The translations under genes and the position numbers were made by a program. Below, in pieces: positions 1,599 to 31,913 of a stretch of 32,000 nt of DNA. Positions within the stretch are counted from its first letter, which is position 1. Each line of letters starts with the position of its first letter. Source of the stretch: Candidatus Iainarchaeum sp. (GTDB lineage: Archaea; Iainarchaeota; Iainarchaeia; Iainarchaeales; CSSED10-239); NCBI GenBank assembly GCA_028700115.1, contig JAQVTI010000002.1:49821-81820 (forward strand), written 5' to 3'. The notes beneath the pieces were generated by a model that made no database searches, was not told the DNA's origin, and saw nothing but the letters and a program-made list of their open reading frames with translations.

Positions 1599-2900
1599 CT
1601 AAATTAATTTTCTTTTATTTAGTTTTGCAAATGAAAATAAAGAACTTCCTGAAAATTTTTGTTCTTTAGAAAACTCGCAATTTTTATAAACATCCATTAT
1701 GTTTCCTGCAAAGTTTAAATTTGTAATTGTTTCTTTATATTTTCCATTCTCAATTACTTTTCCACTATTAATTACTAATGTAAATTCTCCTGTATCAATT
1801 TTATTAGTATGCATTCCAAGTATACTATAAACTAAAATTCCTTTTTTAGTTTTTGAAACTATATCTTCAATTGATTTTTTTCCAGGTTCTTGTAAAATAT
1901 TTGTGTGTCCTGTTAAGATTTGATTAATTAAAGTATTCCTAAATCCATTTCCAGTTGGTTTTTCTGAAAACTTAAGAGCATTTTCTTGATCGTATATTTC
2001 TTTTTTGAAAACTCCTTTTTCAAATATCTTTTTTCTTGAAGTTTTAAATCCTTCATCATCAATTGCTTGGCTTCCTAAAAAATAATCTAAAAAAGGTTCT
2101 TCGTATAAGCTAAGTTTTTCTGAAAAAATTTGTTTATTTTTTTTATCTAATAAATATGATCTTCCTTTTTTTATATCTTCTCCAATACTTGCTTCTAGTA
2201 AAAATTTACTTAGAATTTGTTTGTTAACCTCAGGAGTTAAAATTATATCATATTCTCCTTTTTTTCCTACTTTTGGAGATAATTGATTATATGCATTAAA
2301 TTTTGCTTGATTAAATACATTTTTTACATTTATATCTTTTTCTTTTGTAAAAGTTTGATAATGCCATCCATTTGAAGATTTATTATTTTTTTTTGTAACA
2401 ATGTAAGTTGATAAATCTATATATGAAGATTCTTGTTTATATGAGGTATATGGATTAAAATAACTTTCATATGAATTTATTTTATTTGCTTCACCTATAT
2501 AGTTTTTAAAATATTTTTCTTTAGTTAGATTTTTTTTAATTTCTGGAATTAGATCTCTTGCATTTAGGTCTTTTATGTCTTTGTCTTGTTTTATTTTTCT
2601 TTTAGAAGTTTGATTTCCAAAATCTGTAATTAAAGTTTTTGTTTTTAATTTAGAAATTTTTAAAGTTTTTCTAATAGCTTCAAGTATATTTTTTTTAGAA
2701 ATATCTGTAATTGTAGTATCTGCAATTTTTCCTTTATTAATTGTTCTTACAAATAGTCTTTGAGATTCTTTATTTTCTACTTTATTTATATCAAATTTTT
2801 CAAAATTTATATTTTCTGAGTTTATTTCTCTATACATTATTTCAACATGCTTGTCTTCTGCTAATTTTTTACAATAATTATAAATTTCTTCTTTATTCAT
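1599..2900 (-). CDS. pmbA: PmbA/TldE-family metalloprotease partner subunit
   Basis: Family-typical segments: AIDDEGFKT, and GILVYSILGMHTNKIDTGEFTLVINSGKVIENG. It sits immediately downstream of tldD. I moved the start from the track's TTG (2915) to the ATG at 2900 (MNKEE...), which has GGAGGT (2908-2913 on the minus strand) 7 nt upstream. The ATG overlaps the tldD stop by 8 nt. Confidence 0.8.
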   Translation of the reverse strand: MNKEEIYNYCKKLAEDKHVEIMYREINSENINFEKFDINKVENKESQRLFVRTINKGKIADTTITDISKKNILEAIRKTLKISKLKTKTLITDFGNQTSKRKIKQDKDIKDLNARDLIPEIKKNLTKEKYFKNYIGEANKINSYESYFNPYTSYKQESSYIDLSTYIVTKKNNKSSNGWHYQTFTKEKDINVKNVFNQAKFNAYNQLSPKVGKKGEYDIILTPEVNKQILSKFLLEASIGEDIKKGRSYLLDKKNKQIFSEKLSLYEEPFLDYFLGSQAIDDEGFKTSRKKIFEKGVFKKEIYDQENALKFSEKPTGNGFRNTLINQILTGHTNILQEPGKKSIEDIVSKTKKGILVYSILGMHTNKIDTGEFTLVINSGKVIENGKYKETITNLNFAGNIMDVYKNCEFSKEQKFSGSSLFSFAKLNKRKLI

Positions 2901-4260
2901 GTGTACTACCTCCAATTACAACATCTTTAATTTTCATGTATGGTCCAGAGTCATCTACATTTACTGATTGACCACCTTTTCCACAATATCCTGGTTCCCA
3001 TTCATATGTGTTTCCTATGTCTTGGATGTTGTTTAGGTATTTTAATATACTTCCAGAAATTGAAGCTTGTTTGAAGTTATCAATAACTTCTCCTTTTTCA
3101 TATTTTATAGCTTGTCTTATTCCAAACATAAAAGTTCCAACTGCAGGATCTACTTGTCCTCCAAAAGGTCTTTTTAATAGGTAACCTGTAAAGTCTTTTA
3201 ATAAGTCTTTATTTTTCTTAGTTCCTTTTTTAAAATAAGTATTACTCATTCTAACAATTGGAATGTATATGTAGCTTTGAGCTCTTGCAGATCCATTTGA
3301 TTTTTCTCCAAGAGTTGTTGCAGTTTCTATATCTTTTAGATATTCATTTACAACTCCATTTTTAATTAAATATTTTGGTCTTGATTTAAATCCTTCATCA
3401 TCATATGCAAAGTAACCATGTTTTTTAAGAGTAGGGTCATCTATTAAATTTATATTTTTATTTTTAGAAACAACTTGTCCCTTTCTTAAAACACTATCCT
3501 CTAAAACTATAGCATCAGCTTCACTAGAATGCCCTATTGCTTCATGAGCTAGAAGTCCAGAAGTTTCTGAATCAATAATTACATTTGATTTTATTGCTGG
3601 ACAAAGTTTAGCATTTATTTGTTTTTTTGAAAAATTGTAATTTTCATTTATTAATTTTGTGTAATCTGTTATATTATAAGTTTCAAGTCCACCCACATTT
3701 GCAAACTTTTGATAATTACTTTCTATTTTATTATCTTTTTTTAAATTTATAAAATTTGCAATTGTGCTTGTAGGTGTTTCTTGATATATGAATGAATAGG
3801 GGCTTACAAAGTATTTTTTTAAAATTTCCTCTTTTTTAAAAAGTTTTGTGTTTTTTACATATTCTTTTGAGAAATTTTCTGAATTAATTTTTTTAAGCTC
3901 TTTAACTTTTTTTTCAATATCTTTTTCTTCAAAATTTTTATATTTAAAAATAGCTTTTGCTTTATTTTTTGAAAAGTTTTCAAGATTTATTTTTTGAGTT
4001 ATCTTTTTTGTGTTTTCTATACATTCATTAATTATTTTTTTATAATTTTCAATTTTATTAGTTGAACAAAAACCAATTTTTTTATCTAAGTAAACTCTAA
4101 TACCAATTCCATTAATTTTTTCTTTTTTAATATCTTTTACATCTTTATTTTCTATTTCAATATAAGTTAGTTCTTTTTCTTCAATTCTAAAATCATAATA
4201 ATCTAAGTTTTTTGATTCAAGAAATTTTTTAATTTCATCAATTTTTTCTTCATAATTCAT
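2893..4260 (-). CDS. tldD: TldD-family zinc metalloprotease
   Basis: HExxxH zinc motif in LLAHEAIGHSSEAD, plus the typical YDDEGF and GxC(G)KGGQ C-terminal region (PGYCGKGGQSV). 455 aa is the typical length. Confidence 0.85.
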   Translation of the reverse strand: MNYEEKIDEIKKFLESKNLDYYDFRIEEKELTYIEIENKDVKDIKKEKINGIGIRVYLDKKIGFCSTNKIENYKKIINECIENTKKITQKINLENFSKNKAKAIFKYKNFEEKDIEKKVKELKKINSENFSKEYVKNTKLFKKEEILKKYFVSPYSFIYQETPTSTIANFINLKKDNKIESNYQKFANVGGLETYNITDYTKLINENYNFSKKQINAKLCPAIKSNVIIDSETSGLLAHEAIGHSSEADAIVLEDSVLRKGQVVSKNKNINLIDDPTLKKHGYFAYDDEGFKSRPKYLIKNGVVNEYLKDIETATTLGEKSNGSARAQSYIYIPIVRMSNTYFKKGTKKNKDLLKDFTGYLLKRPFGGQVDPAVGTFMFGIRQAIKYEKGEVIDNFKQASISGSILKYLNNIQDIGNTYEWEPGYCGKGGQSVNVDDSGPYMKIKDVVIGGSTHE

Positions 4261-5800: not shown

Positions 5801-7924
5801 TTGTTAATTGTTGTTTGTGTTGCAATGGTTGTAATTATTTTAAACTGGGGAAAAATGTTTACACATGATAGTGTAAAAGTTATAGATTATGCTTCTTTTA
5901 CAGAATCTGATTTAGAAGGTTATGTTTTTGTAAAAAATATATTTGAATCAACTGATGGATCAGATAGTAAATTAATTTTAGATAATAGAAATAAATTAAA
6001 AGATGCAAATATAATTGCATATAAAATATTAGATTTAGACCCTTCTAAATCTGGAATTACAGATATTTATTATGAATATGATACTCCTGTTTTATTACAA
6101 CACGGGCATTCAAAAGATCTAAATGTTATTTGTTTTCCTTCAAATGAGTTTGATATTGAGTTTTATACATCTGATGAAAAATGTTTTAAAGTAAATGTTT
6201 TTGATTCATCTCTTTCTTGTCAATCTTGTTTAAATCTCCCATATTGTGGAGATAGTTCTTGTAATGGAGATGAGACTGCAAACACATGTTATTCTGATTG
6301 TGGAAGTTGTGGAGATGGAATTTGTACATCTGGAGAAGAAAATATGACTTCTTGTTATACAGATTGTGGAACTTGTGGAGATGGAATTTGTACATTTGGA
6401 GAAGAAAATGCTACAACTTGTTATGATGATTGTGGTGAATGTGGAAATTCTATTTTAGAAGGACCAGAGACTTGTGATTCAGATACAGAAAGTTGTACAA
6501 CTTCTGTTTCAGGAATAACTTATGTTGGAACACATACTTGTTTAGGAGATTGTTCTGCATATGGAACTTGTACTACTACTAAATCTTGTGGAGATGGAAT
6601 TTGTCAAAACACAGGTGGAGATGGAGAAACTGTAAGTAATTGTGTAGTTGATTGTCATTCTTGTGGAGATGGTATTTGTAGTGATGGTTATGAAACTGAA
6701 GTTTCTTGCCCTGCAGACTGTTTACAATATACTTGTAGTCTAGGAGATACAGATAATGGTGATGGAACTTGTACTGCTTTAATAGATGCAAGTTATGATA
6801 ATAGTTTAAAATATACCACTTCTAATTTTGATTATGATGCAACTACTGGAGTAGTTAATGGTGGTACTTATGTTTCTGTAGGTTCTTATGAATTTGGAGG
6901 TGCTGCCCCTGCATTATGTGTTTTAGAAGACACTTTAATTAATGTTTTAAGAAATGATGAAGAAAAAGAAATGTTTGTTCAAGATGTTTTATTGTCTGAT
7001 TATATTTTATCTTGGGACTTTAATCAAAATGAATATATATATGTTCCTGTTTTACAAAAATTTAATAATACTATTAATGAATACTATATTATTAATAATA
7101 AATTAAAAGTTACTTCATTACATCCAATATATATTAAAGATAAAGGATTTATTTATCCAGAAGAAATTACATATAATGATTATTTATTAAATAGTAATGG
7201 TGATTTTGAGAAAGTAAATAGTGTTAAATTTGTTGAAAATGTAGATGAAAATATTTATAATTTTGAAACAGGAAATCATTTTTATTTTGCTAATGGTTAT
7301 TTAACACATAATCCAGCACCTATGTCTCCTTATTTATATTATATACATAGATCTTATTTCTTTTTTGATACTTCTTATATTTCTAGTTATGGAACTGTAA
7401 ATTCTGCAGATTTTAAATTTACTGTTAGTCAATATGATGAAATTACTAGTTATAGTTTTATTTTACAAAAAACAGATAATTCAACTTATCCTCATAATCC
7501 TTTACAAACTGGAGATTTTGATGAATCTTATTATAGTGGTAATTTAGGATCTATTTCAAATTCTAGTTTTGGTTCTCCTTCTATTGTTAGTTTAAATTCA
7601 ACAGGACTTACAGAAGTTACAAATAGTTTAGGAGATACTTTTAAATTTGTTTTAAGATCTGATTGTGATGTAGGTCATTCTTGTGATGATGAGCATAAAT
7701 TAGCTTATATTTATAGATATAATTCTGCAAATCCTCCTCAATTAGAAATAACTTATTCCCCTACATCTCAAGTATACTGTGGAAATGGTGTTGTTGAGAC
7801 AGGTGAAGATTGTGAATGTGGTGTGGGTGCTTTTGATATGGGTAATGTAGGGGAAAATAGTTGTGTAAATTATTCTTCTGATACTTGTATAAATTGTGTT
7901 TATACTGGTGGATTTGGTAATTAA
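5801..7924 (+). CDS. large Cys-rich surface protein with a pilin-type N-terminus (interrupted), an embedded Hint/BIL-like domain and a C-terminal cargo domain
   Basis: 707 uninterrupted codons in AT-rich DNA. In-frame upstream ATG at 5750 gives MDYNFNKKAISP*IATVLLIVV..., the same class III signal as the preceding gene but with TAA at 5786-5788. There are repeated CGDGIC...C..DC modules (6245-6721), a Hint domain (6917-7312) and a terminal CGNGVVETGEDCECG motif. The TTG start at 5801 is the track's call and is probably not the biological N-terminus. Confidence 0.75.
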   Translation: MLIVVCVAMVVIILNWGKMFTHDSVKVIDYASFTESDLEGYVFVKNIFESTDGSDSKLILDNRNKLKDANIIAYKILDLDPSKSGITDIYYEYDTPVLLQHGHSKDLNVICFPSNEFDIEFYTSDEKCFKVNVFDSSLSCQSCLNLPYCGDSSCNGDETANTCYSDCGSCGDGICTSGEENMTSCYTDCGTCGDGICTFGEENATTCYDDCGECGNSILEGPETCDSDTESCTTSVSGITYVGTHTCLGDCSAYGTCTTTKSCGDGICQNTGGDGETVSNCVVDCHSCGDGICSDGYETEVSCPADCLQYTCSLGDTDNGDGTCTALIDASYDNSLKYTTSNFDYDATTGVVNGGTYVSVGSYEFGGAAPALCVLEDTLINVLRNDEEKEMFVQDVLLSDYILSWDFNQNEYIYVPVLQKFNNTINEYYIINNKLKVTSLHPIYIKDKGFIYPEEITYNDYLLNSNGDFEKVNSVKFVENVDENIYNFETGNHFYFANGYLTHNPAPMSPYLYYIHRSYFFFDTSYISSYGTVNSADFKFTVSQYDEITSYSFILQKTDNSTYPHNPLQTGDFDESYYSGNLGSISNSSFGSPSIVSLNSTGLTEVTNSLGDTFKFVLRSDCDVGHSCDDEHKLAYIYRYNSANPPQLEITYSPTSQVYCGNGVVETGEDCECGVGAFDMGNVGENSCVNYSSDTCINCVYTGGFGN
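6917..7312 (+). other. Hint (intein/BIL-like) autoprocessing domain, 132 aa, inside the 5801-7924 CDS
   Basis: Block A: C-VLEDTLINVL, with Cys1 at 6917-6919. Block B: VTSLHPIY (TxxH). Terminal blocks: IYNFETGNHFYFANGYLTHN, ending His-Asn at 7307-7312. The next residue is Pro (7313-7315), not Cys/Ser/Thr. Mini-intein size with no endonuclease insert. Confidence 0.75.
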
Positions 7925-9417: not shown

Positions 9418-11337
9418 ATGAAAACAATTACAGTGCAAGATATTAAAGACTATAAAGAATATGGTTTAAGATGTGGTTTAGAGATTCATCAACAGTTAGA
9501 TACACATAAACTTTTTTGTAAATGTAAGTCTAAACTTATAAAAGAGGATAGAAAACCTGACAAAATTATAAAAAGAGAACTTAGAGCAGTTTCTTCTGAA
9601 TCTGGAGAAATGGATCTTACTGCAAAAGCTGAAAGTTCAAAGAAAAAAACTTTTATTTATCAATTTTATAATGAATGTAATTGTTTAGTAGAAACTGATT
9701 CACAGCCTCCTTTTCCAATTAATAAAGAAGCACTTGAAACTTCTGTAATTATTTCTAATCTTACACATTCTAATTTAGTAGACAAATCTTATGTTATGAG
9801 AAAACAAGTAGTTGATGGGTCTAATGTTTCTGGTTTTCAGAGAACTACTATGATTTCTACAGATGGATATTTAGATTTTGATTTTGGTAGAGTTAGAATT
9901 GATAAAATTTTATTAGAAGAAGATGCTGCAAGAGCAATTGAGAGAAAAGAAAATGAAGTTATTTATAATCTAGATAGACTAGGAGTTCCTTTAATTGAAC
10001 TTGTTGCTTGGCATGATATTTATACACCTGAAGATGTAAAGAAAGTTGCATTGTATCTTGGACAAATGTTTAGATCTACTGGTCTTACTAAAAGAGGGCT
10101 TGGAACTATTAGACAGGATATAAACATTTCAATTACAAATGGTTCAAGAATAGAACTTAAAGGAACACAAGAACTTGATTTAATTCCTGAGATTGTAAAA
10201 AGAGAAGTTATTAGACAATTAAATTTATTAGAAGTTAAAAAAGAATTAGAAAATAGAAATATTTCAAAAGTTTTTTTAGAAAAAAAAGATATAAGTGATT
10301 TGTTTAAGACTTGTGATTCTAAAATAATCTCACAAGCTTTTAAAAATTCAAAAAAAGTTTATGCTTTTTCTCTAAAAGGTTTTAAAGGAATTATTGGTTT
10401 TGAAGTTCAACCAAACAGAAGAGTTGGAACTGAACTTGCTGGGATTTTAAAAAAGCATACTTCTCTAAAAGGAATATTTCATTCAGATGAACTTCCAAAT
10501 TATGGAATTACAGAAGATTATAAAAAACAAGTTTATAATAATTTAAATTTAGATGAAAATAAGGATGCTTATCTTTTAAGTGTGTGTGATTCTAAAGAAA
10601 TTGATTTAGTTAAAGAACTACTTGAAAACAGATTAAATCAATTACTTAAAGGAATTCCAAAAGAGACTAGAATGGTAAATATTGAAGGAAATTCAGAATA
10701 CCAAAGACCTCTTTCAACTTCTTCTAGAATGTATCCTGAAACTGATTTATTACCAATTACTTTTTCTAAAGAATTTTTAGAAAAAGCAAAATCTAAAATT
10801 CCATTAAGTATAAAAGAAAGACTAGATCTTTATGTAAATAAGTTTAAAATCTCAACTCAGTTAGCAGAAAAAATGAAATTAGACAATTTTGCTCCTTTAT
10901 TTGAGAATTTAGTAAAGTCTACAAAGATCAATCCAACTACTTTGTGTGTTTTCTTACTTGAGGATTTAGTTAAAGCAAGTAGAGATAACAAACTTGATCT
11001 GGATAATTTAGATAAATCTAAAATTATTGAGTTTTTTAAATCTGAAGATATAGAAAAAGTTCCAAAACAAAGACTAATTGATGCATTTATTTATTTTGAA
11101 AATAAAGATGTATCTCTAAAACAAGTAATTAATGATCTAGGACTAGATTCATCAGACATCGATCTTGATAAAATTGTAGATGATGTGTTTAATGATAACT
11201 TAGAGTTTATAAAAAAGCAAGGACTTAGAGCAAGTGGTCTTTTAATGGGTAGAGTGATGTCAAAAACTAAGGGTTTAGTTGATGGGAAAACTGTGTCTGA
11301 GAAAATAAGTTCTAAATTAAAGGATTTTGTTAAATAG
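9418..11337 (+). CDS. gatE: Glu-tRNA(Gln) amidotransferase subunit E
   Basis: GatB/E-family N-terminus (GLRCGLEIHQQL, VDGSNVSGFQRT), an archaeal insertion domain and a YqeY-like tail. 639 aa, 22 nt downstream of gatD. Confidence 0.9.
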   Translation: MKTITVQDIKDYKEYGLRCGLEIHQQLDTHKLFCKCKSKLIKEDRKPDKIIKRELRAVSSESGEMDLTAKAESSKKKTFIYQFYNECNCLVETDSQPPFPINKEALETSVIISNLTHSNLVDKSYVMRKQVVDGSNVSGFQRTTMISTDGYLDFDFGRVRIDKILLEEDAARAIERKENEVIYNLDRLGVPLIELVAWHDIYTPEDVKKVALYLGQMFRSTGLTKRGLGTIRQDINISITNGSRIELKGTQELDLIPEIVKREVIRQLNLLEVKKELENRNISKVFLEKKDISDLFKTCDSKIISQAFKNSKKVYAFSLKGFKGIIGFEVQPNRRVGTELAGILKKHTSLKGIFHSDELPNYGITEDYKKQVYNNLNLDENKDAYLLSVCDSKEIDLVKELLENRLNQLLKGIPKETRMVNIEGNSEYQRPLSTSSRMYPETDLLPITFSKEFLEKAKSKIPLSIKERLDLYVNKFKISTQLAEKMKLDNFAPLFENLVKSTKINPTTLCVFLLEDLVKASRDNKLDLDNLDKSKIIEFFKSEDIEKVPKQRLIDAFIYFENKDVSLKQVINDLGLDSSDIDLDKIVDDVFNDNLEFIKKQGLRASGLLMGRVMSKTKGLVDGKTVSEKISSKLKDFVK

Positions 11338-11358
11338 TTATAAAATAGTGTTTATTTG

Positions 11359-11385
11359 GATATTTTATATAAAAAATATCTTTTT
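11359..11385 (+). terminator. hairpin plus T5 after gatE
   Basis: gatatttt-atataa-aaaatatc (8-bp stem) followed by ttttt. The stem is all weak A/T-rich pairs, so this is tentative. Confidence 0.35.
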
Positions 11386-11411
11386 AAATATTATTATCTT
11401 CTTTTTTAAGT

Positions 11412-12164
11412 ATGGATGCTAAGAAAAAAACTTCTGTTAAAAAAAAAGTTACTAAAAGTGCTTTAAAAAAACCTATTGTTAGAAAAAAAACTTCTGTTCA
11501 AAATAAAGTTAGTGCTTTAAAAAGACCTATTGTTAGAAAAAAAGTAAGTATTAAAAAAAAACCAATTTTAAAAGTTATTTCTAAATCCAAAACTTCTTTA
11601 TCACAACCTATTTTAATAAAAAATATTAATGATCCTTCAGAAGTAAGAAAATTTTATGAAAAGCATTATTCTCATTCAATTAAGAAAAAAAGTTTTTTTG
11701 ATATTTTTTGTAAATCTTTATGGTTTCCTATATGTGTGGTATTTTTTATTATATTTTCTGATTTTATTTTAAAATTAATACTTCATAATTTTTTTTCACC
11801 AGTTGTAATTTATTTTTCAAAGCAAAGTATATATTATGGATTTTTTATTTTATTTATGGCTATACTAGGTTTTGGGGCATATATTTCTTTATCATATGAA
11901 TCTGTTAAAAGAAGTTTTTCTTATAATAATTTTATAAGAAGTTTATTTAAAATTTCTTTAATTTTTTTATTTTGTGAATTAGTATTATTAATTTTTTCAT
12001 ATTTTACTATTTTAGTTCCTTATCTTATTTTATTTGGTTTAAATGGTAATTTATCTTATTTAATTTATTTAATTTTATGGTCTTTTATAAAATTTATTTT
12101 ATTTTTTATAATTTCAATAATTAGTTTTATTCTTTTTTCAAATGTAAATTATAACAGAGGTTAA
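11412..12164 (+). CDS. polytopic membrane protein with a lysine-rich tandem-repeat N-terminal tail
   Basis: N-terminal repeats KKKTSVKKKVTKSALKKPIVR / KKTSVQNKVSALKRPIVR / KKVSIKKKPILK, from 54-60 nt DNA repeats. These are followed by about 4-5 hydrophobic helices. The stop is 3 nt before the HIT gene ATG. Confidence 0.6.
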   Translation: MDAKKKTSVKKKVTKSALKKPIVRKKTSVQNKVSALKRPIVRKKVSIKKKPILKVISKSKTSLSQPILIKNINDPSEVRKFYEKHYSHSIKKKSFFDIFCKSLWFPICVVFFIIFSDFILKLILHNFFSPVVIYFSKQSIYYGFFILFMAILGFGAYISLSYESVKRSFSYNNFIRSLFKISLIFLFCELVLLIFSYFTILVPYLILFGLNGNLSYLIYLILWSFIKFILFFIISIISFILFSNVNYNRG

Positions 12165-12167
12165 TTT

Positions 12168-12680
12168 ATGAGTTCTATGAAAATTTTATTTGCTCCTTGG
12201 AGAGAAGAATACTGGAATTTATCAACAAAACAAGATTCTAAAAATTTAAATAAATGTGTTTTGTGTAATCCTTTAGAAGAAGAATTAATTTTAATTTCTA
12301 AATATTCTTACATTATTTCAAATAAATATCCTTATGCTTCTGGTCATTTATTAGTTTGTCCAAAAAGACATATAAATAATATAAATGATTTAACTTCTAA
12401 GGAAAAAATTGATTTATTTAATTTAATTGATTTAAGTGTTTATGCTTTAAAATTAAGTCTAAAACCAGAAGGATATAATATTGGTTGTTCTGTTGGAAAG
12501 ATTGCAGGAGAGAGTATTAATCATCTTCACTTTCATATCTTACCTAGGTTTAAAGGAGATGTTGGTTGGAATAAGCTTTGTGATTTTGAAGTTATTTCTG
12601 TTTCTCCAGAAAATTTAACTAAAGATTTAAAAAAATTAATTTTAGAAAAAAAGCTAAAAAAGAAATTTGATATAAAATAA
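12168..12680 (+). CDS. HIT-family nucleotide hydrolase/transferase
   Basis: Histidine triad HLHFHILPR, N-terminal APWREEY and NKYPYASGHLLV segments typical of the HIT/Ap4A-phosphorylase-like branch. Confidence 0.85.
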   Translation: MSSMKILFAPWREEYWNLSTKQDSKNLNKCVLCNPLEEELILISKYSYIISNKYPYASGHLLVCPKRHINNINDLTSKEKIDLFNLIDLSVYALKLSLKPEGYNIGCSVGKIAGESINHLHFHILPRFKGDVGWNKLCDFEVISVSPENLTKDLKKLILEKKLKKKFDIK

Positions 12681-12792
12681 GTTTGTTTTTTTAAATTTTT
12701 TTATGTTTTTTTAAATTTTTCTTTTAGCAAATGCTTTTTAAATATAATTAATTATTATATATATAATCTATTTATTTTAGGTGGGGCAAAAT

Positions 12793-13284
12793 ATGTTTAA
12801 GATTTTTAAAAAGACAACTGTTAGACAACATTTAGAGATTGATGATTCATTAATTTCTGAAGCAAAAAAACCAAAAAAAGAAGTTTTCTCAGATTATAAA
12901 AATTATAGAGATAAATCTATTGATTGGTTAAAAGAACATTTAAAAGTTATTGACGAAGTTGTTAATAATAAAAAACTAGGTTCTAAACAACAAGGTAATT
13001 TTATTTTAGATGGTAAAAAGATATATAAGTCAGATATAACTAGAGATTTATTTAATAAGATGTTTGATAATTATACAACTTATTATTTTGCTCTTAAAAG
13101 ATATATTAATGTTAGAAAAGAACTCGAACAAATTGAAAAAATTAAAAATGAAGAATTTTTAGTTGCTGGAAGAGCTAAAGAATATAACACAGAAGCAACT
13201 AATATTGAGCAAGAATTAAATAAATGTTTAAGCAATATTTTTAAATTAAAGCAAAAGATTAAAGAAGAAGTTTATTCTTATTAA
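12793..13284 (+). CDS. hypothetical coiled-coil protein
   Basis: I prefer ATG 12793 (MFKIFKK...) over the track's GTG 12781 because AGGTGG sits 8-13 nt upstream. The C-terminal half is Lys/Glu-rich and helical. No motif recognised. Confidence 0.5.
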   Translation: MFKIFKKTTVRQHLEIDDSLISEAKKPKKEVFSDYKNYRDKSIDWLKEHLKVIDEVVNNKKLGSKQQGNFILDGKKIYKSDITRDLFNKMFDNYTTYYFALKRYINVRKELEQIEKIKNEEFLVAGRAKEYNTEATNIEQELNKCLSNIFKLKQKIKEEVYSY

Positions 13285-13303
13285 TTTTATAAAATATAGA
13301 TTT

Positions 13304-13327
13304 AAAAGGAATTAAATCATTCCTTTT
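13304..13327. terminator. hairpin between convergent genes (candidate bidirectional terminator)
   Basis: aaaaggaat-taaatc-attcctttt: 9-bp perfect stem with a 6-nt loop. The right arm overlaps the last codons of the minus-strand 13312-13512 gene. Confidence 0.3.
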
Positions 13328-13512
13328 GCCATTCCTTTTGCAGATCTTAAACATTTTTTATGCCAGTATTGTCCACCCCATTTTTTATCACAACCAGGTT
13401 TATTACAAAGAGCACAATTTTCGGTAGGATATTTACATGTTGTTAAATCTATTTCTTGAACTTTATTTTTTTCTTCAGTTTTTTCTTTTTTTTTAAATAA
13501 ATTTAATCCCAT
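13312..13512 (-). CDS. small Cys-rich (zinc-ribbon-like) protein
   Basis: 66 aa. Lys/Glu-rich N-terminus, then C-x6-C-x2-C-x4-C ... H-x2-C (CKYPTENCALCNKPGCDKKWGGQYWHKKC). It lies 35 nt downstream of tRNA-Gln on the same strand. Confidence 0.5.
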   Translation of the reverse strand: MGLNLFKKKEKTEEKNKVQEIDLTTCKYPTENCALCNKPGCDKKWGGQYWHKKCLRSAKGMAKGMI

Positions 13513-13547
13513 ATTTCTTTTCCTTTAAATTATTTTTAAATATTAAA

Positions 13548-13620
13548 TAGTCCGGAGGAGATTCGAACTCCTGTCGCCAGGTTCAAAGCCTGAAATGCTT
13601 GGCCACTACACTACCGGACT
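13548..13620 (-). tRNA. tRNA-Gln (anticodon UUG)
   Basis: Hand-folded cloverleaf: AGTCCGG TA GTGT AGTGGCCAA GCAT T TCAGG CTTTGAA CCTGG CGAC AGGAG TTCGAAT CTCCT CCGGACT A. The 7-bp acceptor stem starts with A1:U72. The anticodon loop CT-TTG-AA gives UUG. No encoded CCA, and a T-run follows. Confidence 0.9.
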
Positions 13621-13791
13621 TTTATTTTTTAATTTTTTTTTTGATTTTATATAAATATAAGAAAAAGAAGTATTTTTATATCTTTTCAAATAACATATTT
13701 ATGAGTAGAAATATTTAAATTCTTTTAGATTCATAATTTATTTATAATTTAAATTATTTTAACTTTTTTTATAAAAAGAGATTATATTTTA

Positions 13792-13867
13792 GGGAGTTTA
13801 GCTTAGTCTGGTTTTGAGCACTCGACTGATAATCGAGAGGTCGCAGGTTCGAATCCTGCAATTCCCA
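13792..13867 (+). tRNA. tRNA-Ile (anticodon GAU)
   Basis: GGGAGTT TA GCTT AGTCTGGTTTT GAGC A CTCGA CTGATAA TCGAG AGGTC GCAGG TTCGAAT CCTGC AATTCCC A. All four stems pair (two G:U). No encoded CCA. Confidence 0.9.
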
Positions 13868-13995
13868 TTTTATATTTTTTTAATTTAATTTTTAATATAC
13901 ATTATTTTTTTTAAAAAAACCTTTCTTTTATAAATTTAATTACTATTAATTATCTAATTAAATATTGTTAATAAAATATAAAATGTGAATAAAAT

Positions 13996-14193
13996 ATGAA
14001 TAATATAGTTTTTTGTAAGTCTAATGATTTTTTAGAATATATATCCTTAGATATGGATTATAATCCTTCAGATTATGATTATGATCAAGATCCAAAAAAT
14101 AATATAGATGATGATTCTTTAGATTCTTCAGATGAAGAAATAGAAGATGATTGGGATGATGATTCTTCTGATTATGATTCTGATTCTGAATAG
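13996..14193 (+). CDS. hypothetical extremely acidic small protein
   Basis: 65 aa, with a C-terminal two thirds that is almost only D/E/S/Y (DYDYDQD...DDDSLDSSDEEIEDDWDDDSSDYDSDSE). No SD and low complexity, so coding status is uncertain. Confidence 0.35.
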   Translation: MNNIVFCKSNDFLEYISLDMDYNPSDYDYDQDPKNNIDDDSLDSSDEEIEDDWDDDSSDYDSDSE

Positions 14194-14333
14194 TTTTTTT
14201 AATTTCTTTTTTTTTCTTTTTTTTATATCATAAGATATTTAAATAGTTTGTGACTATATTATATTATATAAAATTAAGTTTATTTTTATAAATTATTTTA
14301 TAAATAAAAAAAGGGGTTTTATGGTGATTTTTT

Positions 14334-14735
14334 ATGAGTGATATAGAAAATAAAGAACAAAATAATGAAATTATAGAGCAAGATTTATCTTTAGAAGATG
14401 AAGATGTTGAAGAAGATGATGATAAACTTCCTTTTCCAAATGCAAGAGTTGTAAGATTAATGAGAGAGAGTTTAGATTCTCATAAACAAATTAAATCTAT
14501 TGTTAAGAAAGAAATGAATATTTTTTTAGGAAGACTTGTTGAAACTATTTGTAAAAAAATGAATGAATTTGATTATTCTTATGTTGATTATGGTATGTTT
14601 AAACAAGCAACAGAAACTTTTGAAAATATACAAACAATAGAGCTTGAAAAAATTAGAATTATTAAAGCTTTAGAAAAAATAAAAGCAGATTGTGATGTTT
14701 TAGTAAATGATGTTGAAAGAAAATTCCATGAGTAA
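14334..14735 (+). CDS. histone-fold protein (archaeal histone / CBF-NF-Y family-like) with an acidic N-tail and a helical C-extension
   Basis: LPFPNARVVRLMRESLDSHKQIKSIVKKEMNIFLGRLVETICKKM matches the alpha1-L1-alpha2 pattern LP.a.v.Rimk......is.da...l.....f. GGTGAT SD is 6 nt upstream. The N-terminal 30 aa are E/D-rich. The canonical L2 R-K/T-T is not evident. Confidence 0.55.
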   Translation: MSDIENKEQNNEIIEQDLSLEDEDVEEDDDKLPFPNARVVRLMRESLDSHKQIKSIVKKEMNIFLGRLVETICKKMNEFDYSYVDYGMFKQATETFENIQTIELEKIRIIKALEKIKADCDVLVNDVERKFHE

Positions 14736-17133: not shown

Positions 17134-17209
17134 GGGAGTGTAGCTTAGTCTGGTTTAGAGCATTGGTCTTATACACCAAAGGTCGCAGGTTCGAATCCTG
17201 CTACTCCCA
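17134..17209 (+). tRNA. tRNA-Ile (anticodon UAU)
   Basis: GGGAGTG TA GCTT AGTCTGGTTTA GAGC A TTGGT CTTATAC ACCAA AGGTC GCAGG TTCGAAT CCTGC TACTCCC A. The anticodon loop CT-TAT-AC gives UAU. The D-arm, variable loop and T-arm are identical to the Ile-GAU gene at 13792. Confidence 0.85.
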
Positions 17210-17266
17210 CTAGTTTTTTAAATATTTTTATTTATTCTATATTTAAATATTATAGGTATTTTTAAA

Positions 17267-25327: not shown

Positions 25328-26779
25328 CTATTCATAAGCCCAAGTAGTTTCTTCTTTACCATCAAATAAAATTATTCCATTTTCTTTAAGTTTATCTCTT
25401 ATTGTATCTGATTCTTCCCATTTTTTTTTATCTCGTAGTTTTTTTCTAGTTTCTATTAATTTTTTAATTTGTTCTTTTGAAATTTTTAATTTTTTTTCAA
25501 TGCATTCTTTTTCATTTTGTTTATTAAAGCAAAATACTTTAAAAACCATATTTACTTTTTTTAAAAAATCTAAGATTTCTTTAGATTGTTTTATGCTTAT
25601 TTTATTATTTTCTAAAGATTTATTAACTTCTTTAACTAGAAAATGAATTTCTGCCCAAGCACTAGAAGTATTTAAATCATCATCCATTGCTTTTGAAAAA
25701 TTAGAAATTGTTGTATCTATTATTTGTTGTATATTTGGATTTTCTTTTTCAGAATTTATATTTTGTATTCTTTTTATAAACATATTTAATTTTTCTAAAG
25801 TGTTTTTTGCATCTATTATAGATTTATCTGTATAATTTTGAGGTTTTCTATAATGCCCACTAGAAATTAGATATCTTAAACTTTCAGCAGAATTATTTTC
25901 TAAAAAATTTTCAATAGTTATTGAATTTCCTAAAGATTTACCCATTTTTTTTCCATTTACTGTTAAAAGTGCAGAATGTACCCAATAGTTTACAACTTTA
26001 TGTTGGAAATATCCATAATTTTGTGCAATTTCATTTTGATGATGAGGAAAAACATGTTCAACTCCTCCTCCATGAATATCAAAATGATCTCCTAAATATT
26101 TACATCCCATAACAGAACATTCAAGATGCCAACCAGGATATCCAATTCCCCATGGAGAATTCCATTTAAGAATATGATTTTCTTCTGCTTTTATCCAAAG
26201 TGCAAAATCAGCTATATTTTTTTTATTTGGATCATTTGTAAATCTTGTATTTTTTTCAAGTTCTTCTATATTTATTTTTGAAAATTTACCATAGTCTTTA
26301 AATTTTGAAATATCATAATATATATTTCCATTTATATTATATGCATATCCATTTTCAAGCATTTTTTTAATCCAATCTTGCATTTCTATAATATGCCCTG
26401 AAGCAAATGGTTCTATATTTGGTCTTGTTAATTTTAAAAGATCAAAATATTTCCACATTTTATGAGTGTAAGTATAAACTAATTCCATAGGATGTTTTTT
26501 TCTCTCTCTTGCTCTTTTTTCAACCTTGTCTTCTCCAGCGTCTTGGTCATCTGTTAAATGTCCTACATCTGTAATGTTTCTTACATATAAAATATCATAA
26601 TTATGAAAATATTTAAAATAATTTAATAAAATATCATAATAAATATAACTACAAGCATGACCTATGTGTACATCATCATAAACTGTAACTCCACATACAT
26701 ACATTTTAAGTTGTTTTTCATTTATTGGTTTGAATATTTCTTTTTTTCTTGTTAAAGTATTATATATTTTTATTGTCAT
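25328..26779 (-). CDS. cysS: cysteinyl-tRNA synthetase
   Basis: MYVCGVTVYDDVHIGHA (HIGH), PGWHLECS zinc site, KMGKSLGN (KMSKS). AGGTGGA SD is 4 nt upstream of the ATG. Confidence 0.92.
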   Translation of the reverse strand: MTIKIYNTLTRKKEIFKPINEKQLKMYVCGVTVYDDVHIGHACSYIYYDILLNYFKYFHNYDILYVRNITDVGHLTDDQDAGEDKVEKRARERKKHPMELVYTYTHKMWKYFDLLKLTRPNIEPFASGHIIEMQDWIKKMLENGYAYNINGNIYYDISKFKDYGKFSKINIEELEKNTRFTNDPNKKNIADFALWIKAEENHILKWNSPWGIGYPGWHLECSVMGCKYLGDHFDIHGGGVEHVFPHHQNEIAQNYGYFQHKVVNYWVHSALLTVNGKKMGKSLGNSITIENFLENNSAESLRYLISSGHYRKPQNYTDKSIIDAKNTLEKLNMFIKRIQNINSEKENPNIQQIIDTTISNFSKAMDDDLNTSSAWAEIHFLVKEVNKSLENNKISIKQSKEILDFLKKVNMVFKVFCFNKQNEKECIEKKLKISKEQIKKLIETRKKLRDKKKWEESDTIRDKLKENGIILFDGKEETTWAYE

Positions 26780-27001: not shown

Positions 27002-30000
27002 ATGTTATTTAATAAAAAATTTTTTGGAATTTTATTAGTTTTTATATTTACTTTTTTTGCTTTTTCTGTAAATATTTTTGCAGAAGCAACAGAATGGACT
27101 GGTGGAGATGTTGGTTTAAAGATTAACTCTTTAAAATTTAATGAAGATACTAATGTTCTTGATTTTAATTTTTCTGTAAATTCTAATAAACCTATTTACT
27201 GTGCTTTTGTTTTTGATAAAGATATTAGTCCAGAAATAGATTCTTTTTTATCTAAAAATATGTATGATAAATCAGATACTGTTTCTATGGTATTTAATAC
27301 TCCTATAAAAGTTATAAAATATAATACAGATATGTTTTCTCCAACTAATGCAGATGAATTTTTTATAAAATCATATAATTTAAATGCTGTTAATTCTAAA
27401 TTTTTAGATTTATCAAAATTTTCTAAAGTTGCTTTATATTGTGTTCAATATATAGGAGATTCTAAAGCGGATTATATGGGTAGTTCAAAAAAATTAATAG
27501 GTACTAATAAAGGATTACGAGAATATATTTCTGATAACTTAAATAAAGAAGATGATTCTTTTAAGAAAGGGACTTTGTTTAATAGAAATTCATTATTTAG
27601 AACTGAATTACATATTTTTGAAGAACCTAATCAAGAAGCTTCTAAGTTTATTTTAAATTTAGATGATTCTGATGAAACAGAAGATGAAACTGAAAAAGAA
27701 GATGATTCTAAAAATAAAATAACTACACAAACTTCATCTAAACCTATTAATCACATTTCATTTTTAGAAGTTTCTTCAAATAATGAAAATGCAATTTGTT
27801 CAAATGGAATTTGTTATATAAATACAGATTCTACAGATTCTTTTAATATTAAAAATCAAGTTAATTTTGATGATGGAAAAGAATATTTAGTTCATACAAG
27901 AATTTTATCAATTGGTATTTTACAATCTAGTTTAGAAGATTATATTTTAAATACATTTGAATATTCAAATAATGCAGCTGGGAATTTAACTGAAAATATA
28001 AATTTTATAGATAATGCTTATTTTAAAGGAAATTTAGATGAATTTAATTTAGAAGGAAAACTTGGTTCAAATCAAGTTATTTTAGTTGCAACAAGTTATA
28101 AAACAGATAATGGTTCAACTTATACAAATTATAGTATTTATATGGGAGTAGATAATTCTGAGTTTTCAAAAATTTTATTATATGAAGGAAATAGAAGTAT
28201 AATAAATGCATCTTGTCCTGATTGTTTAGGATTTTATGTTTCTTCAAGTATTATTCCTAAAGTTAAAGATACTTTAGAAAATACTTTAAATATAGAAAAA
28301 TTAGAAAATGTTTTAGAAGGATTAACTTGTAGTTATTCTCAAACTCCAATTGATCCTAAAGAAACTAAAGCAGTTCAAATTCCTGGATGTGATATTAGTA
28401 CTTTAGATCCTAAAGGATATCAAAAATGTGTAACTGATACTTTATTAGAATATAAGGACGTTAGACCAATTCAATATGGAGATAATTATATTTGTGAAGA
28501 AACAGAAGAAGTTTTTGAACCTTCTGGAGATTTAATTGATTGTTTTACAATGATTAAACTTTCTGATAAATCTGTAAGAGATGATGATAGAAATTTTATT
28601 TCTGATTCTGATAAAAATTTTGAAACAATTATAGATGGTAAGAAAAAATCAAGTTTAACTTTTTTAGAAAAATATGATGATTCTAGGATTAAAGTTATAT
28701 TTGATGATATTACTTCTAAAATGACATTTTCTGATGAAGAAAAAGCTGTGTTTTGGGCAAACATAATGGAAGAATCTGGATTTAAAAATAAATCTAGTGA
28801 CAATGGTGAGTCTGTGTCTTTATCTCAAGTTTATATTCCTTATTGGAATGATGAAGATGAATATAATATGATTGCAGATTATATGAAATTAATTAATACT
28901 GATATGACTTATCAAATTTATAAAACAGATTATATTGATACAAATTTAAAAGATATAGAAAAAAGTCTTGAAGTTGGAGCTGCAATCTTTTTATATATGA
29001 GAGATAAAATTGCAGGTAATTTTAACTGTTTAAATGAAAAAACTAGAGAATATGTAGATTCTCCTAATAGGTGTGATAAAGACGCAAATAGTTGTCTAGC
29101 AATTAATACTGCTTTTGTTACATTTTATTTGTATAATGCAGGTGAAGATGAATTACCTGATTTTACAAAAGGAATTCCAGAAGTAGGATCAGAGTATACT
29201 ATTAAGTTATATACTATAGATGAGATGAAAAATGCAAAAGATTCTAAATCAGATGGAATTTTACCTCATCATATTGTTTTGTCATCTACAAGAAAAGTTG
29301 GACATTATTTAGCATATAAAGAACATTATTATGGAGTTTCTGTTTCAAGTACATCTGCTAATAATTCAACTACAACAGGAAGTTCTGTAAAAAATGAAAC
29401 TACAACAGGAAGTTCAGCTTCAAATCAAACAAGTACTTCTTCAGAAACTGTTGAAAAAGAACTTGAAGAATTAAAAAATCCTGAAAATAATTATAGTGGA
29501 GATCCTGAAAATTATATGACAATAGGTGGATCTATTGATAATTTTTTAAAAGAAGTTAATCCTAAGAGATTTCCTGATCCTGCTTTGAGAGAATGTATTG
29601 CTAATCATTATCAATTAGGTGGTTTAGAGAATATAGAATCATTAGATTGTAGTTCTTTTCCTATTAAAAATTTACAAGGAATTGAATATTTAGAATATTT
29701 GAAGATAGTTAATTTAGATTCTGGAGATGAAATTGAAAATTTAAATTTTTTATCTAATTTAGAATATTTAAAAAAGCTTGATATTGATTCTTATGGTCAA
29801 GTAGATACTTCTTTTTTATTAAATTTATCTAGTTTAAATTATTTATCTTTAAGAGGTATAGAAAATTTAGATGTTTCCCATTTAGTAAATTTAAATAATT
29901 TAAATACTCTTATTCTTAATTATAGTAGTCTTATAAATTATTCTGAATTATCTAATTTAACAAATTTATCTGAATTTGATGCAATGAGTTCTAATATAAC

Positions 30001-30874
30001 TGATATTTCATTTATATCTAATTTAACAAAGTTAGAAATTTTAAATTTATGTTATAATTCTATTACTGATATATCTCCTATATCAAATTTAACAAATTTA
30101 AATCATTTGAATCTTCGTAGTTGTTCTACAATTACTGATATTTCTTCTTTATCAGGTTTAACTAATTTATCTTCTCTTGATGTAAGTAATAATGATATTT
30201 CGGATTTAAGTCCTTTATTTGGTATTTCAAATTTAAATTATTTAGATGTTATATCTAATAATCTAGATGCAGAAGATATTAAAGAAGTTGAAAATAATTT
30301 GACTGGATTATTACATTTTTATCATGATGAATTTGAAGAAACAGGTACTGTTAGTACTCAAAATAATTCAAATTCAAATTCAAAATTAGAATTAGATTTA
30401 GAAAATAAATTCCCTGATGAACAATTTAGATTATGTGTTAGTGATATTTTAGCTAAATCTACTGTGACTGATCCAAATTATATATTTTTAACAATTACAG
30501 AATTAGATTGTCAAAGTTATGGTGTTAAATCTATAAAAGGAATTAATTATTTTCCAAATTTAACTACTTTAAATTTAGCAGGTAATGAAATTAGTGATAT
30601 TAATCCATTAAAAGCATTATATAAATTAGAATATTTAGATTTAAAAGTAAATGAACTAAATAATAATAGTTGTGAAAAAGAATCTTGGAGAATATTTAGT
30701 AATGTGGATATTGATAATTGTTTTGATCATATGTCTAATTTAAAATCTTTAGATATTAGTCTTAATATTAATCTTGGGGAAACTGCTAATAAAGAAATTT
30801 TAGAAGATTTGCCTGAAAATTCTAAGTTAACTTGTACTGAAAATGCTATTACTAAAATTTATATTAATAAATAA
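27002..30874 (+). CDS. 1290-aa secreted multidomain protein: Sec signal peptide, unknown N-terminal domains, SLT/GH23-like segment, Ser/Thr linker, two internalin-like LRR blocks
   Basis: Signal peptide FGILLVFIFTFFAFSVNIFA|EA. AGGAGA SD. Acidic patch DDSDETEDETEKEDDS. ES...SLSQ...YNAG motif set (28721-29170). S/T linker with a duplicated TTTGSS unit (about 29340-29450). 22-residue LRRs of the type LTNLxxLxLxxNxITDISPLSN (29570-30300 and 30410-30871), each preceded by an FPD...C cap. Confidence 0.85.
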   Translation: MLFNKKFFGILLVFIFTFFAFSVNIFAEATEWTGGDVGLKINSLKFNEDTNVLDFNFSVNSNKPIYCAFVFDKDISPEIDSFLSKNMYDKSDTVSMVFNTPIKVIKYNTDMFSPTNADEFFIKSYNLNAVNSKFLDLSKFSKVALYCVQYIGDSKADYMGSSKKLIGTNKGLREYISDNLNKEDDSFKKGTLFNRNSLFRTELHIFEEPNQEASKFILNLDDSDETEDETEKEDDSKNKITTQTSSKPINHISFLEVSSNNENAICSNGICYINTDSTDSFNIKNQVNFDDGKEYLVHTRILSIGILQSSLEDYILNTFEYSNNAAGNLTENINFIDNAYFKGNLDEFNLEGKLGSNQVILVATSYKTDNGSTYTNYSIYMGVDNSEFSKILLYEGNRSIINASCPDCLGFYVSSSIIPKVKDTLENTLNIEKLENVLEGLTCSYSQTPIDPKETKAVQIPGCDISTLDPKGYQKCVTDTLLEYKDVRPIQYGDNYICEETEEVFEPSGDLIDCFTMIKLSDKSVRDDDRNFISDSDKNFETIIDGKKKSSLTFLEKYDDSRIKVIFDDITSKMTFSDEEKAVFWANIMEESGFKNKSSDNGESVSLSQVYIPYWNDEDEYNMIADYMKLINTDMTYQIYKTDYIDTNLKDIEKSLEVGAAIFLYMRDKIAGNFNCLNEKTREYVDSPNRCDKDANSCLAINTAFVTFYLYNAGEDELPDFTKGIPEVGSEYTIKLYTIDEMKNAKDSKSDGILPHHIVLSSTRKVGHYLAYKEHYYGVSVSSTSANNSTTTGSSVKNETTTGSSASNQTSTSSETVEKELEELKNPENNYSGDPENYMTIGGSIDNFLKEVNPKRFPDPALRECIANHYQLGGLENIESLDCSSFPIKNLQGIEYLEYLKIVNLDSGDEIENLNFLSNLEYLKKLDIDSYGQVDTSFLLNLSSLNYLSLRGIENLDVSHLVNLNNLNTLILNYSSLINYSELSNLTNLSEFDAMSSNITDISFISNLTKLEILNLCYNSITDISPISNLTNLNHLNLRSCSTITDISSLSGLTNLSSLDVSNNDISDLSPLFGISNLNYLDVISNNLDAEDIKEVENNLTGLLHFYHDEFEETGTVSTQNNSNSNSKLELDLENKFPDEQFRLCVSDILAKSTVTDPNYIFLTITELDCQSYGVKSIKGINYFPNLTTLNLAGNEISDINPLKALYKLEYLDLKVNELNNNSCEKESWRIFSNVDIDNCFDHMSNLKSLDISLNINLGETANKEILEDLPENSKLTCTENAITKIYINK
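28721..29170 (+). other. candidate lytic transglycosylase (SLT / GH23 lysozyme-like) domain within the 27002-30874 CDS
   Basis: IMEESGFKNKSSDNGESVSLSQV has E-S and then Q exactly 17 residues after the Ser, as in E. coli Slt70 (ESAWNPKVKSPVGASGLMQ). Downstream are D.E..L.VGAAIFLY and LYNAG (compare AAYNAG). The spacers between motifs are longer than in canonical SLT domains. Confidence 0.4.
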
Positions 30875-30887
30875 ATGATGATTAAAT

Positions 30888-31913
30888 ATGTTTAGTGTTT
30901 TTAAGAAAAAAAATAAGAACTCTAAACATAGACTTCTTTCTTTAGGTATAGAATCTACTGCGCATACTCTTGGAATTGGAATTATTGATAATTCTGGTAA
31001 AGAATATGTAAATATAAAAAGACAATTCAAACAAGAAGACACAGCAAGTGGTTTTAAACCATTTGATGCAGCTAATTTTCACTATCAAAATGCTTTGCCT
31101 TTACTAAAAGACGCATTAACTAAAGCAAATTTAAAGATGAAAGACATAGATGTTATTTCATTTTCAAAAAGCCCAGGTCTTGCACCTTCTCTTTCAGTTG
31201 GAGCTACTTTTGCAAGAACTTTGTCTATTAAATATAATAAACCAATAGTTGGTGTAAATCATTGTGTTGCGCATCTAGAGATAGGAAAAACTCTAACAGG
31301 AGCAAAAGATCCTTTATTTATTTTTACATCTGGAGCAAACACACAAATTATTGCAAGAAACTATAATAAATATAGAGTTGTTGGAGAAACATTAGATATG
31401 GGTCTTGGAAATTTACTAGATACTTTTGCAAGAGATTTAGGTTATGGTTTTCCTGGTGGACCTGTTTTGGACAAAATGTATTTTGAATCAACTAACTATA
31501 TAGATCTACCTTATACTGTAAAAGGAATGGATTTAGCCTTTTCTGGACTTTTGACATCTGCTCAGAAAAAAATTGAAAAAGTAAAAAAAGAAGATCTAGT
31601 TTATTCATTTGTTCATACAGCATACGCTATGGTTCTAGAAGTTTGTGAGAGAGCATTATCATATACTAAAAAAAAAGAAATCATGGTAGTTGGTGGAGTT
31701 GCAGCTTCAAAAGCTCTAAAAAGCATGCTTGAATCTTTTTGTAAACAAAGAGGAGTTAAGATGTTTTTAGTTCCAATTGCAGCATGTATGGATAATGGTT
31801 TAATGATTGCTGATTTAGGTTTAAAGGAATATATTGCAAATGGTTCAAATAAACTTGAAGAAACTATAATTAATCCAACAGAGAGAGTAGATCAAGTAAT
31901 TATTAACTTTTAA
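30888..31913 (+). CDS. kae1: tRNA N6-adenosine threonylcarbamoyltransferase Kae1 (t6A37 synthesis), not fused to Bud32
   Basis: LGIESTAHTLGIGIID N-terminus. Metal-binding NHCVAHLEIG. GANTQII, GGPVLDK and VVGGVAASKAL segments of the Kae1/TsaD/OSGEP family. Confidence 0.9.
   Translation: MFSVFKKKNKNSKHRLLSLGIESTAHTLGIGIIDNSGKEYVNIKRQFKQEDTASGFKPFDAANFHYQNALPLLKDALTKANLKMKDIDVISFSKSPGLAPSLSVGATFARTLSIKYNKPIVGVNHCVAHLEIGKTLTGAKDPLFIFTSGANTQIIARNYNKYRVVGETLDMGLGNLLDTFARDLGYGFPGGPVLDKMYFESTNYIDLPYTVKGMDLAFSGLLTSAQKKIEKVKKEDLVYSFVHTAYAMVLEVCERALSYTKKKEIMVVGGVAASKALKSMLESFCKQRGVKMFLVPIAACMDNGLMIADLGLKEYIANGSNKLEETIINPTERVDQVIINF

Follow-up and report, generated by a model that had tools for sequence, protein, structure and literature searches.

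A strongly diverged GH23-related lysozyme-like domain in a putatively secreted protein of a DPANN archaeon and its possible action on bacterial peptidoglycan

A stretch of 32,000 nucleotides from Candidatus Iainarchaeum sp. (contig JAQVTI010000002.1 of assembly GCA_028700115.1, positions 49,821 to 81,820 of the forward strand; hereafter, the window) carries a gene for a large multidomain protein, in the middle of which lies a segment with the motifs of lysozyme-type enzymes. With moderate confidence, this segment is regarded here as the catalytic core of a lysozyme-like superfamily member that has diverged strongly and is nearest to GH23; it would reside in a secreted DPANN protein and be likely to target peptidoglycan. 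A tentative SLT/GH23-like domain had already been proposed at this place in a first-pass annotation made from the sequence alone, and profile-profile alignment (hhalign), conservation among homologues, and AlphaFold2 (AF2) models compared with Foldseek all argue for this assignment. The domain represents a lineage-specific, insertion-bearing subfamily, which is predicted to act through a single carboxylate.

The segment at 28721-29170 (+) translates to a peptide in frame with a 1,290-aa open reading frame (ORF). The domain, which is supported by the family alignment, hhalign, AF2, and Foldseek, and its motifs are located as follows (pLDDT, predicted local distance difference test score):

28664..29386, + strand: divergent GH23/SLT-type lysozyme-like domain, residues 555-795
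28763-28831, + strand: IMEESGFKNKSSDNGESVSLSQV, residues 588-610, the ES-to-Gln stretch
28772..28777, + strand: motif I, predicted catalytic Glu591-Ser592, invariant in 17/17 homologues, at the C-terminus of model helix 24-38
28817..28831, + strand: motif II equivalent SLSQV, with Q609 at 28826-28828 (family consensus G-[ILV]-x-Q-[IV]-N)
28952..28996, + strand: motif III helix DIEKSLEVGAAIFLY (SLEVGAAIFLY helix), residues 651-665, within model helix 98-119 (pLDDT >90)
29099..29143, + strand: motif IV equivalent AINTAFVTFYLYNAG, with invariant F705 and Y709; YNAG at 29132-29143
29291..29320, + strand: C-terminal helix RKVGHYLAYK, with invariant Tyr769 at 29306-29308, in model helix 202-223

Translation located the Glu-Ser pair and the Gln just as they had been described: the glutamate encoded at 28772-28774 is E591, and Q609 lies 17 residues past S592 (i.e., E+18), the spacing given for Slt70 in the first-pass annotation. 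The order of a motif III helix followed by LYNAG (residues 710-714, 29129-29143) could also be confirmed. The Gly of motif II is kept in most family members and is replaced by Ser in both the window copy and P0003, its orthologue with 80% identity at the protein level. Tyr769 may correspond to the active-site Tyr that MltE and Slt70 have close to their C-termini. The domain of the window copy has three Cys residues, all within one insertion. An antisense ORF of 105 aa at 28486-28803 (-) overlaps the start of the domain; it was rejected as spurious, probably an artefact of AT-rich sequence, as it overlaps a conserved coding frame.

Relatives of the window protein were few in initial searches. 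An exhaustive phmmer search found six of them, and a word-index homologue search found two; P0006, when used as query in the latter, returned just itself. All public homologues that carry a name are listed as 'hypothetical protein [archaeon]'. The family alignment finally comprised 17 domains with 20-34% identity to the window copy, in which six positions are invariant: E591, S592, Q609, F705, Y709, and Y769 (the last three being F151, Y155, and Y215 in domain numbering), while K211 and L216 (domain numbering) are nearly invariant. The ES glutamate, which the first-pass annotation had singled out, is therefore strictly conserved. When the family profile was searched against 215 genomes of the phylum, the domain was detected in 14 of the 21 genomes of the archaeon's own family; outside this family, there was only one weak partial match, in one of the three genomes of a neighbouring family. 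Most relatives are proteins of 700-810 aa that end with the domain, and a C-terminal leucine-rich repeat (LRR) extension is carried by the window protein and P0003 only. In addition, four ORFs of ~1,280-1,950 aa from sister genera (L012, G026:C4; L015, G033:C44; L017, G042:C19; L018, G038:C2) match the domain profile over its N-terminal third only. Two of them have lost the catalytic Glu (Q-T-S in L012 and E-K-S in L015, versus E-E-S), and these ORFs may represent either paralogues without catalytic activity or a subfamily that has diverged further.

Profile searches linked this family to lysozyme-type enzymes through its relatives. Scans of the window protein and its domain with Pfam, NCBIfam, and PHROG hidden Markov models (HMMs) gave LRR matches only, plus a PSMA-like_C match (E 0.03) that was considered spurious; similarly, a cytochrome b5 match (E 0.045) of the insertion-rich C-terminal part in a single-sequence phmmer search against the PDB was considered a chance match. 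On its own sequence, the window domain is thus not assignable to a family, which bears out the caution of the first-pass annotation. L011, a full-length and syntenic member from the same genus that matches the family profile at 1e-15, reached 24.7 bits against Pfam SLT (cut-off 21.3) over profile positions 10-108 of 117, and its locus was picked up independently by a genome-wide search with PF01464. Matches to SLT at E<1 were obtained for five of the 17 members (L011 plus four below threshold) and none for the other 12, and further members matched Lys, Phage_lysozyme2, or SLT_3, which belong to the same lysozyme-like clan. Moreover, L016, of a neighbouring family, is a canonical SLT protein (29.6 bits; RESNFNP...GLMQVN...GYNAG) and matches the family profile at 8e-6. 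HMM support for the proposed assignment was thus obtained by way of the relatives and not from the window copy itself.

Comparison of the family alignment with a profile of 12 canonical SLT domains found within the archaeon's own phylum by hhalign gave a probability of 95.2% (E 2.5e-8), as against 0.1% (E 0.56) for a reversed-template control. The ES pair, GLMQ, and the motif III helix were confidently aligned: E591-S592 fell on the ES of SLT domains, SLSQV on GLMQ, and DIEKSLEVGAAIFLY, with high posterior confidence, on their 'P..NI..G..YL' helix. The same alignment revealed two insertions of ~20 residues, one between motifs II and III and the other between motifs III and IV, because of which the inter-motif spacing is doubled; this accounts for the spacers of about twice the canonical length that had made the original assignment tentative. 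When the family profile was searched against the PDB, essentially only C-type lysozymes were found (best E 0.007), aligned on E35-S36, which corresponds to E591-S592, and on GI.QIN..W. These results establish homology of the family to lysozyme-like enzymes.

Structure prediction pointed in the same direction. The AF2 model built from 17 homologues had a pLDDT of 78.1 and a predicted template-modelling score (pTM) of 0.79, with the second insertion disordered. In this model, E591 is located at the C-terminal end of a helix, followed by short strands and a beta-hairpin (strands 50-52 and ~55-56), which contains motif II. The top 50 Foldseek matches in the PDB were mostly GH23 enzymes, led by salmon goose-type lysozyme (3mgw), P. 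aeruginosa Slt (5ohu), and E. coli MltE (6ghz/2y8p), with MltF, MltC, and Cj0843 also present; the probability was 0.97-1.0 for the top matches (0.9-1.0 across GH23 matches), and the template-modelling (TM) score was 0.40-0.55. Phage LT_GEWL, SLT, and muramidase proteins were matched in a viral structure library. Support for a lysozyme-like alpha+beta fold with a cleft, as expected from the first-pass annotation, is consistent and of moderate strength. None of the three outcomes that the first-pass annotation had named as refuting its proposal (no such fold, no HMM support, and a non-conserved ES glutamate) was observed.

Several observations weigh against this assignment and should be considered together. 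No lysozyme-family match was found for the window copy in Pfam, NCBIfam, or PHROGs; against Pfam SLT, it gave no match even at E<=1 (gathering threshold, 21.3 bits). The first AF2 model, built from seven sequences, had a pLDDT of 68.5 with the beta-hairpin unresolved, and Foldseek found nothing significant for it. Even for the 17-sequence model, the Foldseek E-values were just 0.05-0.5, at the TM scores given above and with a root-mean-square deviation of 7-8 Å. The window copy has Ser for the Gly of GLMQ and Tyr for the Asn of Q-[IV]-N. The LYNAG segment, previously equated with the AYNAG motif, does fall on the AYN.G of SLT domains under relaxed hhalign settings, but with low confidence, and the motif is poorly kept across the family, where just Y/H and a frequent G are retained (Y/H-x-x-G). 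The genome contains no canonical SLT, NlpC/P60, M23, or Amidase_2 domain, i.e., no supporting 'arsenal' was found in it. Finally, GH23 also includes a chitinase, that of Ralstonia A-471 (3w6f/3w6d), and 3w6f was the best TM match of the first AF2 model.

As the family has Ser at the position of Asp52 of hen egg-white lysozyme (HEWL), lacks the disulfide framework, and has no GH22 structure among its top fold matches, the mode of action is predicted to be of the single-carboxylate GH23 type and not that of a GH22 lysozyme. In the proposed mechanism, the signal peptide would export the protein and the C-terminal LRRs would bind a ligand on a neighbouring cell. Glu591 would then serve as the single general acid, aided by Ser592, Gln609, and the conserved tyrosines, to cleave beta-1,4 bonds between N-acetylated amino sugars, either as a lytic transglycosylase or as a hydrolase. 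The substrate would most likely be the N-acetylmuramic acid-N-acetylglucosamine (MurNAc-GlcNAc) backbone of bacterial peptidoglycan, and the protein may thereby allow the archaeon to attach to bacteria, breach them, or feed on them.

The alternative that survives best, although rather unlikely, is that the domain is an active GH23-like glycosidase with a substrate other than murein, such as chitin or chito-oligosaccharides, a GlcNAc-rich exopolysaccharide, or an envelope glycan of an archaeal host, including pseudomurein. The chitinase mentioned above would fit this possibility, as would the two insertions, which remodel the region around the cleft, and the fact that the genome yielded no further murein hydrolase. 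However, peptidoglycan-active enzymes greatly outnumber chitinases among the matches of the better model, based on 17 sequences, and the ES, Q, and Y residues are retained as in the murein-active family-1 lytic transglycosylases. With regard to pseudomurein in particular, no GH23 enzyme is known to cleave its beta-1,3 bonds. It should also be noted in favour of a non-murein substrate that the known DPANN hosts are archaea (PMC8204110).

It is also conceivable, but quite unlikely, that the domain is a non-catalytic glycan-binding module in which the lysozyme fold has been kept for binding cell-wall sugars and which acts as an adhesin together with the LRRs. The LRR fusion itself suggests a role in adhesion, both the Gly of motif II and the Asn past the Gln are substituted in the window copy, and distant partial relatives without the Glu exist (L012 and L015). 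Nevertheless, Glu, Ser, Gln, and three aromatic residues are invariant in all 17 full-length members despite an identity of 20-34%, which is the pattern expected of a retained active site. As for a chance resemblance of motifs in an AT-rich, low-complexity protein unrelated to lysozymes, the lack of a direct HMM match for the window copy and Foldseek E-values above 0.01 would be compatible with it, but it is highly improbable given the contrast between family and reversed control in hhalign, the score of L011 above the Pfam SLT threshold, the invariance of the motif residues in the family, and the convergence of independent sequence-profile and structure searches on lysozyme-fold enzymes.

The genomic context bears on the question of the target. 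Among the proteins encoded in the window are GatD/GatE, a group II chaperonin, Kae1, and an Ssb-like oligonucleotide-binding (OB) protein, which confirms the archaeal source assumed in the first-pass annotation; its GC content is ~17-28%, and the genome (0.96 Mb, 89% complete) fits a DPANN-type archaeon. Searches of this 89% complete genome revealed no Mur ligase, SEDS, or penicillin-binding protein (PBP) genes. Remodelling of the organism's own wall, whether of murein or of pseudomurein, was therefore rejected, and the target should be foreign. The lysozyme-like domain is the sole candidate murein-cleaving module found in the genome. Of the 215 genomes of the phylum, 60 contain canonical SLT domains scoring over the cut-off, and these frequently belong to ORFs of 1,000-3,400 aa. 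Within the archaeon's own family, the PF01464 search detected 3 of the 21 genomes, compared to 14 with the family profile; the divergent form predominates there.

The lysozyme-like gene is located between the genes for cysteinyl-tRNA synthetase (CysRS; 25328-26779, -) and Kae1 (30888-31913, +). The order CysRS(-)/surface protein/Kae1 is kept on two other contigs, L031 and L033, which come from different lineages; it holds for P0003 and for P0007, a protein of 724 aa from a different lineage. This conserved position fits a vertically inherited and retained gene. Recent transfer from bacteria or phages was judged unlikely, since the locus is syntenic across genera and the composition, at ~23-25% GC, matches that of the window. 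Some variation around the locus was also seen: on L031, the CysRS gene and the surface-protein gene are separated by a gene with an AbiEii domain and a small ORF, and on L033, the contig of the 80% identical orthologue, Kae1 is followed by a 1,182-aa gene (10935-14483, +) without a Pfam match, whose equivalent place in the present genome falls outside the window, past its end.

The complete protein consists of a putative signal peptide, an N-terminal beta-rich region, the lysozyme-like domain, a Ser/Thr linker, and two LRR blocks, in this order. Apart from the domain, the features are as follows:

27002..30874, + strand: whole gene, 1,290-aa multidomain protein, the sole long ORF at that position
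27002..27082, + strand: signal-peptide-like segment MLFNKKFFGILLVFIFTFFAFSVNIFAEA, with a basic N-terminus and a hydrophobic core of ~18 residues followed by A-E-A
28541..28663, + strand: conserved lead-in to the domain (CFTMIKLSD... region), from BLASTP alignments
29345..29461, + strand: Ser/Thr-rich low-complexity linker, from sequence inspection; the model ends here with pLDDT <50
29570..30304, + strand: LRR block 1, internalin-like, residues ~857-1101, from Pfam and NCBIfam matches
30383..30871, + strand: LRR block 2, residues ~1128-1290, LRR consensus repeats seen by eye, within the LRR stretches counted by Pfam

The segment MLFNKKFFGILLVFIFTFFAFSVNIFAEA probably serves as an export signal, as judged by inspection of its sequence. 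BLASTP alignments to P0005 and P0004 start at residues 515 and 476, respectively. In LRR block 1, the Pfam matches were LRR_4 (5.9e-21), LRR_EndoS (4.6e-12), and LRR_8, and partial matches to internalin-type models were found in NCBIfam.

A more specific proposal, which is tentative, is that the gene encodes a host-contact enzyme of a cross-domain (archaeon-on-bacterium) episymbiosis in one family of DPANN archaea, in which the LRRs acquired in this species would form the host-recognition head and the remodelled cleft, with its two insertions, would be tuned to the chemistry of the host wall. For most DPANN archaea, hosts and ways of life are obscure, and a secreted peptidoglycan-cutting enzyme in an organism without a wall of that kind would be a rare sequence clue that some of them interact with bacteria rather than archaea. 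If the host-contact proposal is true, the gene would provide a direct handle on the hosts of this phylum. The LRR fusion supplies a module whose binding can be tested.

Other features of the window were also recorded. At 17134-17210 (+), there is a tRNA-Ile with a UAU anticodon, besides a tRNA-Ile(GAU) at 13792-13867. In most archaea, AUA is read by a CAU tRNA carrying agmatidine, so that finding UAU as an anticodon in the genome is unusual; TiaS may have been lost in this lineage. A 707-aa ORF at 5801-7924 (+), adjoining the GatD/GatE genes, matched Pretoxin HINT (PF07591) at E 1.9e-5 with 25.4 bits, which is below the cut-off of 27.7, and could encode a polymorphic-toxin-like or intein-like protein. 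Tandem genes for PmbA/TldD-type metallopeptidases (438 and 455 aa) at 1599-4260 (-) are an ordinary housekeeping pair.

The general idea of secreted lytic-transglycosylase-type enzymes in DPANN archaea is already known (PMC8204110, PMC9723730). What is new is a subfamily beyond detection by standard HMMs, with two insertions, a fixed chromosomal position, and an LRR fusion in this species. The present case shows that the trait extends beyond what standard annotation reveals: because the domain has diverged so far in this archaeal family, a Pfam- or CAZy-based survey would record these genomes as lacking it (3 of 21 genomes by PF01464 versus 14 of 21 by the family profile).

Among known systems, the closest are the GH23 enzymes (Slt70, MltE, and MltC; P. 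aeruginosa Slt and MltF; goose-type lysozymes), which provided the top Foldseek matches and the best profile-profile match of the family. In both, a helix ends with the Glu-Ser pair, a Gln lies 17 residues past the Ser, the beta-hairpin and the motif III helix follow in the same order (as does, at low alignment confidence, a Y-N-A-G-like turn), and a second catalytic Asp is absent. In contrast to GH23 (Pfam SLT, PF01464), the window copy falls below every curated HMM threshold, the spacing between motifs is twice as long owing to the insertions, SLSQ replaces GLMQ, AYNAG is reduced to the Y/H-x-x-G remnant across the family, an extra C-terminal helix with an invariant Tyr is conserved, and the domain sits in an archaeon without murein.

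With regard to C-type lysozymes (GH22; Pfam Lys, PF00062), the family pattern E-S-x-F...G-[IL]-x-Q-I-N-x-x-W strikingly resembles E35-S36...G54-I-L-Q-I-N...W of HEWL; these enzymes were the only sequence-profile matches in the PDB, and one member matches Pfam Lys at 4.5e-4. However, the column two residues before the conserved Gly, which would correspond to Asp52 of HEWL, is mostly Ser and never Asp. The family domain has ~220-240 residues and no four-disulfide framework, whereas C-type lysozymes have ~130 residues (about 100 fewer) and four disulfides, and no GH22 structure was among the top 50 Foldseek matches.

The C-terminal half resembles internalin-type LRR proteins (InlA/InlH; the LRR of EndoS), as it matches LRR_4, LRR_8, LRR_EndoS, and, partly, internalin models, and EndoS, too, is secreted, cleaves glycans, and carries an LRR module. 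Only the repeat type is shared with internalins (93 bits versus a cut-off of 1600), and the protein has neither LPXTG nor any other bacterial anchor.

Large extracellular proteins with lytic transglycosylase domains have been described in small-genome DPANN archaea and read as binding or degrading bacterial walls by Castelle et al. 2021 (PMC8204110), where Rinke 2013 and Castelle 2015 are cited on such proteins; they also appear in Vigneron et al. 2022 (PMC9723730). The window protein resembles the large murein-like lytic transglycosylase proteins of DPANN fam00969, as described in PMC8204110, in being a big, putatively secreted protein of a small-genome DPANN archaeon with a GH23-type domain and the same proposed role. 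Those proteins were found with standard SLT models, whereas the window subfamily mostly is not (12/17 members without an SLT match at E<1). In further contrast to them, the window subfamily occurs only in a single family, which belongs to another DPANN phylum, and occupies a fixed CysRS-Kae1 locus, where, in the present species, it is fused to LRRs.

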